Assembly (NCBI GenBank): GCA_045564975.1
Contig: JBJLGF010000034.1
Coordinates: forward strand, 123,680-187,679
Length of the DNA: 64,000 nucleotides
Origin: Paracoccaceae bacterium
GTDB lineage: Bacteria; Pseudomonadota; Alphaproteobacteria; Rhodobacterales; Rhodobacteraceae
Reading direction: 5' to 3'
This document shows positions 54,923 through 60,764 of this stretch, in pieces (positions within the stretch are counted from its first letter, which is position 1; each line of letters starts with the position of its first letter). The notes beneath the pieces were generated by a model. It did no database searches. It was not told the DNA's origin and worked only from the letters and a program-made list of their open reading frames with translations. The translations under genes and the position numbers were made by a program.

Positions 54923-54987
54923 GTTTCACTCCTCATACCCTTCAAAAAAACCAAAATCGTTAAAAGGGTTTACCGCGCTAATTATTT

Positions 54988-55292
54988 TAAGTGTAGGCTT
55001 CTGTTGCCAGGTGCCTACGAACCCCGCCAAACCAAGCTAGAGGTTTGGACTTAGATTTCAGTATCTCCGACTGCTTACGCAGCCATCGCTACTGGAGCAC
55101 GATTGTCATTTGCAATTGTACATTTTGCGCCGATAACGGTGGCTTCCCGCCGAAACAAAGCTAACCCTTTTAGACGTCCGTCGATCCTATTTCGGCCCCA
55201 AAGGTATATTTTGGTGGAGCCGCAGGGTACCGCCCCCTGGTCCGATCCGCTTATTATGAGCGCGTTTATGTCCATAGTTCAAAAGAACATCT
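54988..55292 (-). ncRNA. ssrA: tmRNA, circularly permuted two-piece form; tag peptide (A)NDNRAPVAMAA
   Basis: Minus strand: acceptor piece ends ...CGGCTCCACCA at 55212; 12-nt spacer; coding piece starts GGGGCCGAAATAGGATCGAC at 55199; tag ORF 55113-55075; terminal hairpin gtagg..cctac near 54990-55020; outer ends approximate. Confidence 0.95.
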
Positions 55293-55450
55293 GATGTTTA
55301 AGCAAAAAACTCCAAAATTTAAAGATTTAAATAAGAAAAGTTAAAAAATTTTTACGGTGCGTCATTTAAACGTTTTTTCTTGTGTGAAAAACAAAACAGT
55401 GTATCTCGAGAGCGGTTTAAGATTGGACTAATTGTTCGGAGTGAAATGTA

Positions 55451-56284
55451 ATGGCTATTTCGCGTAATATTTTTTGGATAGCGTTTTTTGCTTCTATATT
55501 AGCGTCTTGGTGGTGGCTTTACTCCATGAGCCTATCGATGAATATGGATTTGTTAGGACGCATGTCTATGAATACCGCAATGTCCAACATGGATATGTCC
55601 AAAGAGCCTATGTCCAACATGGATATGTCGAAAAGAATGACATCTATGGATCCTATGAAGGGTCACATGGCGATGGATAATTCCATGACCAGTTTTCTAC
55701 CACTTGCTGGAATGTGGGCAATAATGATGGCAGCGATGATGCTCCCAACAATGGTCCCGACTTTGAGAAGTTACGAAGATTTGATGACCAGTGCAAATGG
55801 AACAAGGGTAGGTTGGTTGGGCGTACTTATAGGTTATTCAATTGTCTGGGTGTTATTCTCTTTAATAATCAGCGGCACTCAATTAGCATTACTTTATTTG
55901 AATGTGGTTGATATGATGGGCAAAGCAAAGTCTTTATGGCTATCTGCTGCTCTTTTAATTGTTGCGGGAGCATTCCAATTTACCCGTGCCAAGGAAGTTT
56001 GTCATGGTGTCTGCCATAGTCCAATGTCATATTTTGTCGGTTATTGGCGAGTTGGTTTTAGCGGCGGTTTACGTATGGGGTTGAGCCTCGGCGCTTATTG
56101 CGTCGGGTGTTGTTGGCTGTTTATGGTTCTAGGCTTTGCAGGTGGCGTCATGAATTTTCTTTGGATGGGACTAGCCACGTTTATGATGGTACTAGAAAAA
56201 CTACCACAATTGGGCCACTTTCTTGTAAAACCGCTTGGCATACTGCTGATTCTCAGTGGGCCGAGCATAATTATATTATTTTAA
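55451..56284 (+). CDS. DUF2182 predicted metal-binding integral membrane protein with Met-rich loop
   Basis: MWAIMMAAMMLP, QFTRAKEVCHGVCHSP, YCVGCCW, GVMNFLWM...LEK. Confidence 0.88.
   Translation: MAISRNIFWIAFFASILASWWWLYSMSLSMNMDLLGRMSMNTAMSNMDMSKEPMSNMDMSKRMTSMDPMKGHMAMDNSMTSFLPLAGMWAIMMAAMMLPTMVPTLRSYEDLMTSANGTRVGWLGVLIGYSIVWVLFSLIISGTQLALLYLNVVDMMGKAKSLWLSAALLIVAGAFQFTRAKEVCHGVCHSPMSYFVGYWRVGFSGGLRMGLSLGAYCVGCCWLFMVLGFAGGVMNFLWMGLATFMMVLEKLPQLGHFLVKPLGILLILSGPSIIILF
55580..55633 (+). repeat. In-frame 30-bp-period tandem duplication encoding MSNMDMSK x2
   Basis: atgtccaacatggatatgtc at 55580 and 55610. Confidence 0.9.
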
Positions 56285-56300: not shown

Positions 56301-57005
56301 ATGGCAATAAGCAGAAAACCTGAAGCGGATAAATTACCAGTTAGCCAGCGTATCAATCAACGAATGGAGAACCCAAAGAGACGTCAGGCTACTCCGACAG
56401 AGTGGGCTATAAAGGGAGAGCTATTTCTAAATTGTTCTTGTACGGTTTTTTGCCCTTGTGTTGTTAGTCTAGGCGCTCATCCACCTACCGAAGGCCACTG
56501 TCATGCATGGATGGCAATTGCGATTGATGAGGGCTACTATGAAGAAGAAAATTTGGCTGGAATAGATGTCGGTTTGTTAGTGGATATACCCGGCCGTATG
56601 GGTGAAGGTGATTGGAAGGTCGCGGCATATATAGACAGTGCTGCCAGTGGAAAGGCTTATAATGGTTTGCTTCGTATTTTAAGTGGTCAGGCAGGAGGAA
56701 CCACTGGTTTGTTCACGATGCTTGTGAGCGAGATTATTGGTGCTGAAAAAACAAAAGTTGATATTGTCAGAGAAGGTAAGAAACGTTCGATAATGATTGG
56801 GCGTAAAATACAGGGTGAAATTGAACTCATTGAAGGTAATGAAAAAGACCAACCCGTATTAATAAGTAATACAAAGTATTGGATGGGCCCTGATATAATA
56901 GCAGCCAAAGGTATTAAATCTAAGGTTCGTGATTATGGGCGAGTTTGGGATTTCGGCGGAAAATCTGCGGAAGTTTGCCCCATTGATTGGAAAGGTTCAG
57001 CCTAA
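56301..57005 (+). CDS. DUF1326 family Cys-rich protein
   Basis: WAIKGELFLNCSCTVFCPC...PTEGHC, PGRMGEGDW; usual partner of DUF2182. Confidence 0.88.
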   Translation: MAISRKPEADKLPVSQRINQRMENPKRRQATPTEWAIKGELFLNCSCTVFCPCVVSLGAHPPTEGHCHAWMAIAIDEGYYEEENLAGIDVGLLVDIPGRMGEGDWKVAAYIDSAASGKAYNGLLRILSGQAGGTTGLFTMLVSEIIGAEKTKVDIVREGKKRSIMIGRKIQGEIELIEGNEKDQPVLISNTKYWMGPDIIAAKGIKSKVRDYGRVWDFGGKSAEVCPIDWKGSA

Positions 57006-58106
57006 ATGGCTGGCATAGTTCCTTCAAGAAGAGTTCGCGGTACGCCATTTTCTGCTGGCGTCCAAGCTGCTGGAGCTAAGGCTTACACAGTGTATAACCA
57101 TATGCTGCTACCAAGCTATTTTGAAAGTTATCGAGACGATTATCATCATCTAAAAAAATACGTTCAAGTTTGGGACGTGTCTGTGGAAAGGCAGGTAAGC
57201 GTCAAAGGTCCTGATGCAGCTAAAATGATGACAATGGTTAGTCCTCGTGACATGAACAAAATGGCTGAAGATCAGTGTTACTACATGCCTATCTGTGATG
57301 ATAATGGCGGAATGTTAAATGATCCAGTTGCTATAAAATTAGCTGAAGATCACTACTGGTTATCAATCGCTGATGGTGATTTGCTTCAGTTTCTACTTGG
57401 TTTAGCAATTGGAAAAAATTTACAAGTCGAGATTGAAGAACCTGATGTTTCTCCGTTGGCTATTCAGGGGCCACTAGCAGAAGATCTAACCGCTAGGGTT
57501 TTTGGCGACGTTGTTCGTGAAATTAAATTTTTTCGTTACAAAAAGTTAAAATTCCTTGATACGGATTTTGTTGTGGCGCGTTCAGGTTGGTCTAAGCAGG
57601 GTGGTTTTGAAATTTATGTTGATGGTACAGAATATGGAAAGCCTCTTTGGGACGCCTTTTTTGAAGCTGGAAAAGATTTAAATGTCAGAGCCGGTTGTCC
57701 AAATTTGATTGAACGAATTGAAGGTGGATTATTATCATACGGGTCGGATATGACACGGCAAAACACACCTGTAGAGGCCGGGCTTGCAAGATTTTGTAAT
57801 TCGCCAGATGAGTATCTTGGAAAAGCAACAATTGAAAAACAAAAAAGAGATGGATCAGACCGTATAGTGTGTCCGATTTCTATTGGTGGCGGTGATGACT
57901 TGCCGCACAATGTAACTGGATGGAGGGTTCTTTCCAAAAATAATCAAGTGGGCTTAATTGCTTCAGCTGCATGGTCTCCTGATTTTCAGACTAATGTTGC
58001 AATTGGGATGATTGAGCGAGGCCACTGGGACGCAGGAACGGTTCTCAATGTAGATACTGGCGCTGATATTAGATCAGCGGAAGTAAAAGAAAAATTTTGG
58101 ATTTAA
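57006..58106 (+). CDS. dmdA: Dimethylsulfoniopropionate demethylase
   Basis: PSRRVRGTPFSAGV...YTVYNHMLLP, VQVWDV..ERQ, GGMLNDPV, ARSGWSKQGGFEIY, ERIEGGLLSYG; closely matches Roseobacter DmdA as recalled. Confidence 0.92.
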   Translation: MAGIVPSRRVRGTPFSAGVQAAGAKAYTVYNHMLLPSYFESYRDDYHHLKKYVQVWDVSVERQVSVKGPDAAKMMTMVSPRDMNKMAEDQCYYMPICDDNGGMLNDPVAIKLAEDHYWLSIADGDLLQFLLGLAIGKNLQVEIEEPDVSPLAIQGPLAEDLTARVFGDVVREIKFFRYKKLKFLDTDFVVARSGWSKQGGFEIYVDGTEYGKPLWDAFFEAGKDLNVRAGCPNLIERIEGGLLSYGSDMTRQNTPVEAGLARFCNSPDEYLGKATIEKQKRDGSDRIVCPISIGGGDDLPHNVTGWRVLSKNNQVGLIASAAWSPDFQTNVAIGMIERGHWDAGTVLNVDTGADIRSAEVKEKFWI

Positions 58107-58124
58107 ATCAAAGGAGAAGAAAAA

Positions 58125-59369
58125 ATGGCTACCAAACAGCTTTACGATCTCGGTGATATGCCACCTCTGGGGGAGGTTCCAGAAAAGATGCATGCTTTTT
58201 TAGTTCGACAGGACCGGTTTGGAGAGCCAAGTAAAGCATGGCAAAGAGAAGTCATCGATACGCCAACAATTGGGCCTAAAGACGTATTGGTTTATGTGAT
58301 GGCAACGGGTGTAAACTATAACAACGTTTGGGCGGCGCTTGGATTTCCAGTGGATGTTATTAAGGATCGACAGAAAAAGGGGGAATCAGAGGATTTTCAT
58401 GCTGGTGGCTCCGATGCTTCTGGTATCGTTTGGGCCGTTGGTGAGGAAGTCTCCGATGTGAAAATAGGAGATGAAGTTGTGGTTCATTCTGGCTGGTGGG
58501 AGCCTGATGATGCTTGGGTGCTATCGGGTAGAGACCCAATGCTTGCGCCTAGCGTTCGTATTTGGGGTTATCAAACGAACTATGGTTCCTATTGTCAATT
58601 TGCCAAAGCTCAATCCCATCAAATTAAGAAGAAGCCTAAACATCTTACTTGGGAAGAAGCTGGCTGTTATATGCTTTGTGCATCAACAGCATATCGCCAA
58701 TTAATGGGTTGGGCGCCACATACTGTTGAAAAAGACGATGTTGTTTTGGTCTGGGGTGCTGCCGGTGGCCTTGGTGCTATGGCGTTGCAAATTGTTTCTG
58801 CTTTAGGAGGTAAAGCTATTGCCGTAATTTCAGATGAAGACAAACGGCAGTTCTGCTTGGATAAAGGCGCTGTTGGGGTCATAAACCGTAATGACTTTGA
58901 TCATTGGGGGTCTATGCCGGATACTGCATCTCCAGAGTATGGTAATTTTATTAAAGGGGCACGCGCTTTTGGAAAAGCCATTTGGGATATACTCGGTGAA
59001 CGAAAAAATCCTAAAATTGTATTTGAGCATCCGGGCGAGGCGACATTGCCAACATCAGGTTTCATCTGTGATACAGGTGGTATGGTGGTAATTTGTGCTG
59101 GAACAACGGGATATAATATAACCATGGACCTGCGTTATCACTGGATGATGCAAAAACGTTTTCAAGGGTCACATTTGGCAAATGATGAACAGTCAGAAGC
59201 TGTGAATGAATTGCTTTTGGCAGGAAAAGTTGATCCATGTTTGTCAGGAACTTATAGTTTTGACGAAATAGGTCACGCTCATCAGCTCATGTATGAAAAC
59301 AAACACCCCTATGGAAATATGGCTTGCCTAGTGAATGCTAAAGAAACTGGACAGGGCGCAACAAAATAA
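58125..59369 (+). CDS. Crotonyl-CoA carboxylase/reductase family enzyme (divergent enoyl-CoA carboxylase/reductase)
   Basis: [58 protein letters not shown]. Confidence 0.9.
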
Positions 59370-59411: not shown

Positions 59412-59549
59412 CTTACAGCAAATTGTTATGTTTTAACAATTGGGTAATTTTATTTTGTTGATAAACTATCGGAGATTGAATTTTAAATTAAATACTACCT
59501 GTAAGATGTTGCTTATAAATAAAAAAAATAGTCATAATAGAGGCCAATT

Positions 59550-60764
59550 ATGGACTTAGATATAAATTTTGTTCGTAATCAGTTTCCGGCATTTTCGGAA
59601 AATAGCTTAATGAATAAAGCTTTTTTTGAAAATGCAGGAGGTTCTTATGCGTGTGGGCAAGTTATTAATCGCCTGAAGCGATTTTATAATGAGAGAAAAG
59701 TACAGCCTTATGGTGCTTTTGAAGCCAGTATTTCTGGTGGAAATGAAATGGATGAGGCTAGGGTAGGCCTTGCGCGCTATTTGGGTGTCAAAGAGAGTGA
59801 AGTGAGCTTTGGACCATCTACAACTCAAAATACATATGTTTTAGCTCAAGCTTTTGGAGAATGGTTGGTTCCAGGTAATGCGATTATTGTTACAAATCAG
59901 GATCATGAAGCAAATACTGGCTCTTGGCGAAGACTTTCTAATCAAGGAGTGCAGATTAAAGAGTGGAAAGTTAACAAAGAAACTGGCGAGCTAAATATAG
60001 AAGATTTGGAAAATTTGCTAAGTGAAGATGTAAAATTAGTGTGCTTTCCACACTGTTCAAATATCGTTGCACATATTAATCCAGTCAAGGAAATAGTATC
60101 ACGGGCACATTCTGCTGGCGCCTTTGTTTGTGTTGATGGAGTGAGTTACGCTCCACATGGCTTACCAAATGTAGATGAAATAGGAGCAGATATCTATCTG
60201 TTCTCAAGTTATAAGACTTATGGACCTCATCAAGGTATAATGGTTATCAGAGAGGTCCTTGCTGAATTGCTCCCTAACCAAGGGCATTATTTTAACGAAA
60301 AATTTTTGACTAAAAAATTTACTCCTGCTGGGCCAGACCATGCACAGATAGCGGCCTGTGCGGGTATTGTTGAATATTTTGATGCCTTAGCAGCTCACCA
60401 TAATATAAGTTTATCTGAGGCACCAATAATGGTGCATAAACTGCTGAGAGATTATGAGAAAAAACTTCTTCAGCCATTATTGGATTATGTAAAATCAAAG
60501 AACTCAACTCGATTGCTGGGTCCCTCTAATGCTTCAAAAAGAGCTCCAACTGTAGCGGTAGATCTGAAGTGCAATGCATTTGAAGTAGCTAAAAAGCTAT
60601 CAGATTTAAATATATTGGCCGGAGGCGATGATTTCTACGCAGTTAGACTTCTGGAAGCATTAGGTGTTGATATAGCTCATGGCGCTCTGCGGTTAAGTTT
60701 TGTACATTATACGAAAGAAGAAGAGGTAAAAGCTGTAATTCAAGCCTTAGATGAAGTTCTATAA
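59550..60764 (+). CDS. Class V PLP aminotransferase / cysteine-desulfurase-like protein
   Basis: FFENAGGS, DHEAN, VDGVSYAPH, FSSYKTYGPH, LRLSFVHY. Confidence 0.87.
   Translation: MDLDINFVRNQFPAFSENSLMNKAFFENAGGSYACGQVINRLKRFYNERKVQPYGAFEASISGGNEMDEARVGLARYLGVKESEVSFGPSTTQNTYVLAQAFGEWLVPGNAIIVTNQDHEANTGSWRRLSNQGVQIKEWKVNKETGELNIEDLENLLSEDVKLVCFPHCSNIVAHINPVKEIVSRAHSAGAFVCVDGVSYAPHGLPNVDEIGADIYLFSSYKTYGPHQGIMVIREVLAELLPNQGHYFNEKFLTKKFTPAGPDHAQIAACAGIVEYFDALAAHHNISLSEAPIMVHKLLRDYEKKLLQPLLDYVKSKNSTRLLGPSNASKRAPTVAVDLKCNAFEVAKKLSDLNILAGGDDFYAVRLLEALGVDIAHGALRLSFVHYTKEEEVKAVIQALDEVL

Follow-up and report, generated by a model that had tools for sequence, protein, structure and literature searches.

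Directly 3' of the DMSP demethylase gene dmdA, where acuI is found in 24 of 26 Roseobacters according to the available text of PMC3338564, the 64,000-nucleotide stretch of Paracoccaceae DNA analysed here (the window) carries a gene of the crotonyl-CoA carboxylase/reductase (Ccr) family. Its product has glutamine in place of a conserved glutamate of the CO2 pocket. The locus therefore raises two questions: what does an enoyl-CoA carboxylase/reductase (ECR) do in the acuI slot, and what does the glutamine say about its product? The features of the window are collected in Table 1.

Table 1. Features of the window, with position, strand and basis of assignment
Feature	Position	Strand	Basis
tmRNA, at the place of dmdR in other genera	54984..55304	-	
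dmdE	55451..56284	+	PF09948 membrane protein
dmdF (DUF1326)	56301..57005	+	PF07040
dmdA, DMSP demethylase	57006..58106	+	NF009133, 560 bits (cut-off 410)
Gln-type ECR homolog of 414 residues, occupying the acuI slot	58125..59369	+	TIGR01751 and structure match
Asn64-Tyr65-Asn66 motif; codon of Asn66 (58320..58322), equivalent to the CO2-anchoring Asn81	58314..58322	+	Asn66 in 120/120 homologs
Ser122-Gly-Trp124-Trp125, clade signature	58488..58499	+	homolog alignment
Tyr149, equivalent to the water-shielding Phe170	58569..58571	+	Tyr in 120/120 homologs
Gln150 codon (CAA), motif RIWGYQTN, equivalent to KsCcr Glu171	58572..58574	+	alignment mapping
His350 (CAT, 59172-59174), equivalent to His365; Leu351, equivalent to Phe366	59172..59177	+	alignment
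Cysteine-desulfurase-like (csd-like) gene, downstream flank common to both slot alleles	59550..60764	+	

Membership of the Ccr family was assessed by profile search and by structure. The window ECR scores 548 bits against TIGR01751 (cut-off 379), and its AlphaFold2 model (pLDDT 88.8) matches 4Y0K, 9KVA and 4GI2 with TM scores of 0.93-0.94, i.e. it has the ECR fold. By sequence it is not an AcuI, as the AcuI/YhdH models give 59 against 297 bits (TIGR02823) and 33 against 440 bits (NF051456). Contigs from two RNA libraries cover the gene, a coverage that is no evidence of transcription. The same genome has a second, ordinary ccr, which reads GYET, scores 615 bits and lies divergent from an ecm-like mutase gene on contig C68; this is the copy linked to ecm, and the window ECR belongs to a separate clade. 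The contrast with canonical Rhodobacteraceae Ccr drawn in the earlier note is borne out against this ordinary copy, with HSGWWEPDD standing against HCNQDNGDD and 414 against 431 residues.

Residues were mapped onto the Kitasatospora setae enzyme (KsCcr, 6OWE) through an actinobacterial Ccr (P0174), which aligns without gaps both to KsCcr and to the window ECR. The correspondence obtained is Asn81=N66, Thr82=N67, Ser119=S96, Cys145=S122, Ile167=I146, Phe170=Y149, Glu171=Q150, His365=H350 and Phe366=L351. Of the four CO2-pocket residues, Asn81, Phe/Tyr170 and His365 have their equivalents, including the asparagine of the NYN motif and the histidine of GSH that had first been read as retained. 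Because Gln150 replaces Glu171, also as first read, the window ECR was kept out of the canonical four-residue carboxylases. Asn67 matches AntE, and the residue equivalent to Leu351 is Val350 in AntE and again leucine in propionyl-CoA synthase (PCS).

Residue 171 was tabulated, as the earlier note had proposed. Of the 120 best homologs (80-94% identity), 118 have Gln at position 150. So do all 67 genome loci with at least 72% identity (CAG in 42, CAA in 25) and 79 of the 80 metagenome loci; the remaining one is a split hit that was left unscored. All 13 genome loci at 58-62% identity have Glu. Among the 89 scorable of 150 listed representatives of 50%-identity clusters, the residue is Glu in 67, Asp in 10, Gln in 9 and another in 3, and eight of the nine Gln-type representatives also bear the HSGWW signature. 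In the solved relatives aligned, Glu is found in AntE, 4GI2, three actinobacterial Ccrs and PCS, Asn in 9KVA, and Gln in none. N66, Y149 and H350 are each present in 120 of the 120 best homologs and, together with Ser96, are invariant in these homologs or in the 127-row alignment. In the two top homologs with Glu three further residues differ as well (Thr for Trp124, Val for both Ile146 and Leu351), so Gln150 varies within a set of nearby positions. The Glu-bearing members inside the clade (L225:1598-2833 of genome G317, P0025 and P0112) have the coupled Thr124, Val146 and Val351. A further ECR group has Asp at the Glu171 site (the 10 of 89 representatives; P0131, P0162, P0185, P0216 and others) and mostly reads RVWGYDTC with HAGQW; the 9KVA type has Asn.

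A quick maximum-likelihood analysis of 84 rows (midpoint root, no bootstrap; AntE, 9KVA and KsCcr left out) groups the 42 clade rows together with an SH-aLRT of 100, apart from ordinary Rhodobacteraceae Ccr, and nests the Glu-bearing members within the Gln clade. The distinct subfamily supposed in the earlier note is thus supported. Judged by sequence, the glutamine is the mark of a separate Ccr-family clade, strongly conserved and mostly marine, which reaches Rhodospirillales, Woeseia, SAR324 and others.

The ECR gene and acuI are swapped gene for gene in one slot. The PF09948 protein at the head of the operon is, by its position, presumably the DUF2182 protein dmdE of PMC12992908, the equivalence of the two Pfam names being our assumption. 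The order rne-ccdA-sspB-dmdE-dmdF-dmdA-X-csd-phr-cfa is the same in the window and in G058 (L109), a genome of the same genus in which X is acuI. Flanking proteins of the two are 74-96% identical, and DNA similarity ends at window position 58115 and picks up again at 59547. No acuI above cut-off was found in the window genome (85% complete). All nine acuI genes of the genus precede the csd-like gene, with dmdA directly upstream in eight and a contig end in one. As far as the available text of PMC12992908 goes, dmdE, dmdF and dmdA always occur with acuI, under DmdR, and the dmdF product is a peroxidase. The window genome further carries a PccB-like gene and genes for a cupin of the DMSP-lyase type and for a DddP that scores above its cut-off. 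The search for prpE, in a genome 85% complete, stayed below cut-off, with an acetate-CoA ligase as the best match. As a separate observation, the window DmdA is 85% identical to that of G058 and only 53-57% identical to the same-slot DmdA of seven other genomes of the genus (about 635-655 bits for the six that are full-length), so that two DmdA types occupy one slot. Several genomes of the genus have a second dmdA-like gene over cut-off.

Across genomes the ECR clade and acuI are nearly mutually exclusive. Among 22 genomes of the genus seven have the ECR, nine acuI, none both and six neither; the last six are 53-90% complete and have no dmdA over cut-off. A family sample of 300 genomes, each at least 90% complete, has acuI in 282 and the clade ECR in 6, and acuI is absent from five of these six as against 13 of the other 294. 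Fisher tests give 2.5e-6 (family) and 8.7e-5 (genus), values that ignore kinship and are thus overstated; they carry no weight because the genome sets overlap and their members are kin. Carriers are mostly incomplete assemblies, and related genomes are not independent. In the 50 clade-bearing genomes behind 50 of the 67 loci acuI is found in four. The acuI genes retrieved from three clade-bearing genomes are unlinked to the ECR, and their products are 44-47% identical to the AcuI of the genus. Genomes keeping acuI as well as the clade ECR number five (four of the 50, and G172), plus one metagenome contig (L206). G406, a single contig without acuI, has dmdR, two dmd boxes and dmdE-dmdF-dmdA-ECR (ECR protein accession XAT61289.1), and G317 (91% complete, no acuI) has its Glu-type ECR (L225) after dmdE-dmdF, in the acuI slot. 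Thirteen near-complete family genomes have neither gene (G078, G082, G131, G134, G219, G227, G228, G234, G254, G270, G373, G386 and G402); they are candidates for further routes of acryloyl-CoA removal, or for having no need of one.

The regulators found beside ECR genes also speak for a link to acryloyl-CoA. In the available text of PMC12992908, DmdR is a repressor released by acryloyl-CoA, which binds acryloyl-CoA and not propionyl-CoA. Loci L015-L020 have a divergent GntR/FCD gene and the exact published dmd box, TTAAATGTCAGAC. Three of these regulators were aligned; they are 70-74% identical to the acuI-linked DmdR and keep E136, D163, S171 and E179 (numbering inferred from the acuI-linked DmdR protein). 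With a further exact box at L222, the ECR-bearing relatives appear from sequence to belong to the DmdR regulon. In the window genome a tmRNA lies upstream instead, and dmdR was found in none of the 22 genomes of the genus. This holds for acuI and ECR carriers alike, sspB and the tmRNA lying at the place of dmdR, and the dmd operon of this genus may be unregulated or differently regulated.

Elsewhere, five lone ECR genes are preceded, at a distance of about 60 bp, by a dmd box with one or two mismatches (the background being 0.0075 per 300 bp), and in the four lone-gene genomes tested an unlinked dmdR faces dmdE (dmdF seen in three) and acuI is absent. Nine distant ECR loci (Rhodospirillales, Hyphomicrobiales, Arenicellales, others) have a directly divergent, more distant DmdR-like regulator, and the seven of these that were aligned keep three of the four effector-site positions. 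A prpE-like ligase adjoins the ECR gene or the regulator in three loci. On L206 (686-3616 of a 4.6 kb contig) there is a tight acuR-ECR-acuI operon with AcuR over cut-off, the only locus with ECR and acuI side by side. Altogether a DMSP or acrylate gene or regulator is linked to the ECR in 31 of the 67 genome loci, with none found in the flanks of the other 36, and the ECR gene directly follows dmdA in 12 of the 67. The gene upstream in the metagenome loci is dmdA in 11, dmdF in 11, a regulator in 12 and another gene in 35, with a contig edge in 11. At loci L021, L026, L057, L064 and L069 the ECR occurs with dmdF, in some also with dmdE, but dmdA is absent; the L021-type layout resembles the dmdEF-acuI operons described in the available text of PMC12992908.

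Other motifs and neighbours were also recorded. A 12-of-13 match to the dmd box inside dmdA (window position 57678) was taken as chance, there being four such matches genome-wide, and the short FadR consensus has 8 matches against 11.5 by chance. A looser upstream motif with a -35-like TTGACA has 14 matches in 19 kb of upstream sequence and 3 in 718 kb elsewhere, and is found upstream in 15 of 80 metagenome loci; it was derived from its own matches, and the enrichment was not counted. At the Woeseia-type loci (L022, L025, L142-L147, L151, L153, L172-L180) the ECR gene borders peptide ABC transporter genes, and DMSP genes were not found nearby. The other neighbour there is an apparent rsmG-parA-parB, names which we assume from motifs. 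A conserved upstream protein of about 580-600 aa without an NCBIfam match (L033, L036, L038, L039, L076) adjoins an AphA-like regulator and accompanies the ECR in several Alphaproteobacteria.

Horizontal acquisition, which had been suggested from the window alone, is favoured by the patchy spread and by the gene-sized swap with acuI, but a recent transfer is ruled out. Between genera the protein is 81-94% identical and fourfold sites only 24-34%, i.e. silent sites are saturated, which argues for strong purifying selection and no recent change. GC3 is 0.35 in the ECR gene and 0.36 in the ordinary ccr. Plasmid carriage was considered and rejected, as every one of the 34 plasmid records matched is below 60% identity. 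Since the deeper branches are mostly other marine Alphaproteobacteria, the ECR clade was probably acquired and then displaced acuI, which we infer to be the ancestral state in the family. At L009, fourfold identity to the window falls near position 58110 from 90-97% in dmdE-dmdF-dmdA to 67% in the ECR gene and 56% in csd, and a recombination break at the dmdA/ECR junction is likely. Accumulibacter loci L075-L083 have an AntE-like, Glu-type ECR (NYNN, 58-60% identical to the window ECR) clustered with meaB and with genes for an ecm-like mutase, MaoC hydratases and an acyl-CoA dehydrogenase.

Because of the acuI slot, the exclusion and the links to DmdR-like regulators and AcuR, we consider the window ECR to be likely a substitute for AcuI that acts on acryloyl-CoA, whatever its product. 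The altered substrate preference proposed earlier accordingly gains support from the genomic context (dmdE-dmdF-dmdA, acuI slot). Such a substitute would need a reshaped pocket, as ordinary Ccr has a KM of 0.78 mM for acrylyl-CoA, which it carboxylates 40% as fast as crotonyl-CoA (PMC10266731, available text), and AcuI has a KM below 3 uM (PMC4029986, available text). The fixed Ser122, Trp124, Gln150 and Leu351 would be compatible with this. Positions 145, 167 and 366 of Ccr set the chain length.

Our best explanation for the product, to which we give a probability of about 0.45, is detoxification of acryloyl-CoA with carboxylation to methylmalonyl-CoA when CO2 is available. Acrylate from DMSP cleavage would be ligated to CoA by some ligase, and a hydride from NADPH would be transferred onto acryloyl-CoA to form the enolate. 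With CO2 the enolate would give (2S)-methylmalonyl-CoA, and with a proton, when CO2 is wanting, propionyl-CoA. Gln150, Trp124, Ser122 and Leu351 would tune the pocket to the C3 substrate, CO2 binding not being switched off, and the toxic acryloyl-CoA would be removed with NADPH by the ECR in place of AcuI.

The earlier note had inferred an altered balance of carboxylation and reduction, and the evidence gives no support for a shift toward reduction by the glutamine. In the available text of PMC6628652, KsCcr E171A retains 97% carboxylation, with a kcat about 17-fold lower and a KM for crotonyl-CoA 25-fold higher; F170Y gives 100%, and carboxylation is lost only in N81L (19%) and F170A (17%). 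E171A thus leaves carboxylation nearly intact in KsCcr, and Asn66, Tyr149 and His350 do not vary among the best homologs; the change to Gln is therefore compatible with carboxylation and points as much to substrate positioning. As the Glu-bearing member of G317 also fills the same slot, Gln150 leaves the product undecided. The pocket motif likewise fails to predict the product, because PCS retains its Asn, Tyr, Glu and His in our alignment, yet PCS and the Nitrosopumilus reductase, natural relatives that reduce acryloyl-CoA, show almost no carboxylation (PMC7918591, available text). Against carboxylation stands the sequence itself, in which one of four pocket residues is altered.

A plain acryloyl-CoA reductase of Ccr descent, its carboxylation largely lost, with propionyl-CoA as product and Gln150 as part of the change, has an appreciable chance, though well short of even. 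The slot, the exclusion and the DmdR-like or AcuR context hold equally for it, and the enzyme whose place the ECR takes is a pure reductase. PCS, which also has Leu after His, and the archaeal enzyme are precedents; a detoxification enzyme should not stall at low CO2 (the KM of KsCcr for CO2 is 90 uM in the available text of PMC6628652); and the PccB-like gene could take propionyl-CoA onward. The invariance of Asn66, Tyr149, Ser96 and His350 argues against a plain reductase, as do the 97% carboxylation left after loss of Glu171 alone and the retention of acuI in the L206 operon, which fits a non-redundant product (one contig).

It is unlikely that the enzyme serves another short enoyl-CoA (the methylthioacryloyl-CoA of DMSP demethylation, or else methacrylyl- or crotonyl-CoA) and shares no more than its regulation with the DMSP genes. 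The position directly behind dmdA in 12 loci, the promiscuity of ECRs (PMC8252502) and the unrelated neighbours at many loci would suit such a role, but even at loci that lack dmdA the ECR is accompanied by dmdF, a DmdR-like regulator or acuR, the loss of acuI is left unexplained, and DmdR responds to acryloyl-CoA. Very unlikely is a second ordinary Ccr of the ethylmalonyl-CoA pathway, with the glutamine a tolerated variant and the position incidental. The TIGR01751 cut-off is passed, Glu-type relatives lie in the ecm/meaB clusters of Accumulibacter, and a second ccr was not seen in 26 of the 50 carriers, which are incomplete genomes. On the other side, ecm and meaB clusters occur at Glu-type loci only, three kinds of acrylate-linked context recur, and, judged by its ecm neighbour, an ordinary ccr would already cover the pathway here, as in the 24 of 50 carriers that have a second ccr. 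A sequencing or assembly error at the Gln150 codon can be dismissed, given the same residue in independent assemblies and with both Gln codons. Contigs of four runs all cover the bin with the codon, and none of the 40 variants listed, out of a larger number that includes 270 more, lies at 58572-58574; the dismissal does not rest on this coverage.

The best matches in sequence and fold are AntE (4Y0K) and the Mesorhizobium metallidurans ECR (9KVA; bioRxiv 10.1101/2025.10.17.683039), both 55-56% identical to the window ECR. Like it, they have the N(Y/F)NN motif, a Tyr where KsCcr has Phe170, and GSH; they differ in having Glu (AntE) or Asn (9KVA) for Gln150 and, in AntE, Val for Leu351; the available text of the 9KVA preprint contains neither 'carboxylation' nor 'E171'. 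Ethylmalonyl-CoA-pathway Ccr (M. extorquens 4GI2, K. setae 6OWE and the gene on C68) shares the family model, the fold and three of four CO2-pocket residues, but is 53-54% identical (35% for KsCcr) and differs in Gln/Glu171, HSGWW/HCNQD, Leu/Phe366 and the link to ecm. AcuI in the DmdR regulon (dmdR, dmdEF-dmdA-acuI; available text of PMC12992908 and PMC3338564) has the operon slot of the window ECR and the dmd box and regulators of its relatives, and also occurs in an acuR-acuI-dddL operon (PMC3017554, available text); unlike AcuI, the window ECR lies on the superfamily's carboxylating branch. The reductase domain of PCS (6EQO) is Ccr-like, has His-Leu at the His365 site and acts on acryloyl-CoA, the role proposed here, but it is part of a fused three-domain enzyme, keeps Glu and has Asp after Asn. 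In the synthetic HOPAC/CETCH cycles Ccr carboxylates acrylyl-CoA to methylmalonyl-CoA, saving one ATP over reduction plus propionyl-CoA carboxylase; these are engineered, in vitro systems, and the available text of PMC10266731 presents the cycle as new to nature.

Ccr, AcuI and the side activity of Ccr on acryloyl-CoA are already known. Literature searches, with most subscription journals outside their coverage, brought up neither a Ccr-family gene occupying the acuI slot nor a Gln clade of Ccr, and no paper joining dmdA, crotonyl-CoA carboxylase and acrylyl-CoA; 'ccr' and 'crotonyl' are absent from the main text and eight supplements of PMC12992908. Surveys of acuI or ccr would misplace the clade, because databases label its members plain crotonyl-CoA carboxylase/reductase. 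In the available text of PMC12992908 dmdR is nowhere described as facing dmdA where acuI is missing; the ECR-bearing dmdR-dmdA genomes without acuI are an exception to this and suggest what fills the place. Many bacteria are without any known acrylate-resistance enzyme (PMC4029986, available text), and the Gln-type ECR clade is a candidate for that gap.

That several marine lineages replaced AcuI with a dedicated acryloyl-CoA carboxylase/reductase, making methylmalonyl-CoA from acrylate and CO2 without ATP, is a tentative proposal, to which we give somewhat less than an even chance. The natural Gln and Glu versions in one slot make the carboxylase or reductase outcome directly testable. If the ECR only reduces, it would be a natural instance of a carboxylase reverting to a reductase. 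If it does carboxylate, the removal of acrylate would at the same time fix CO2, at a saving of one ATP per acrylate, and synthetic CO2-fixing cycles, in which the KM of ordinary Ccr for acrylyl-CoA is 0.78 mM, would have a ready candidate in this enzyme. Nature would then possess its own counterpart to the central reaction of HOPAC/CETCH, and marine sulfur cycling would be tied to anaplerotic CO2 fixation.
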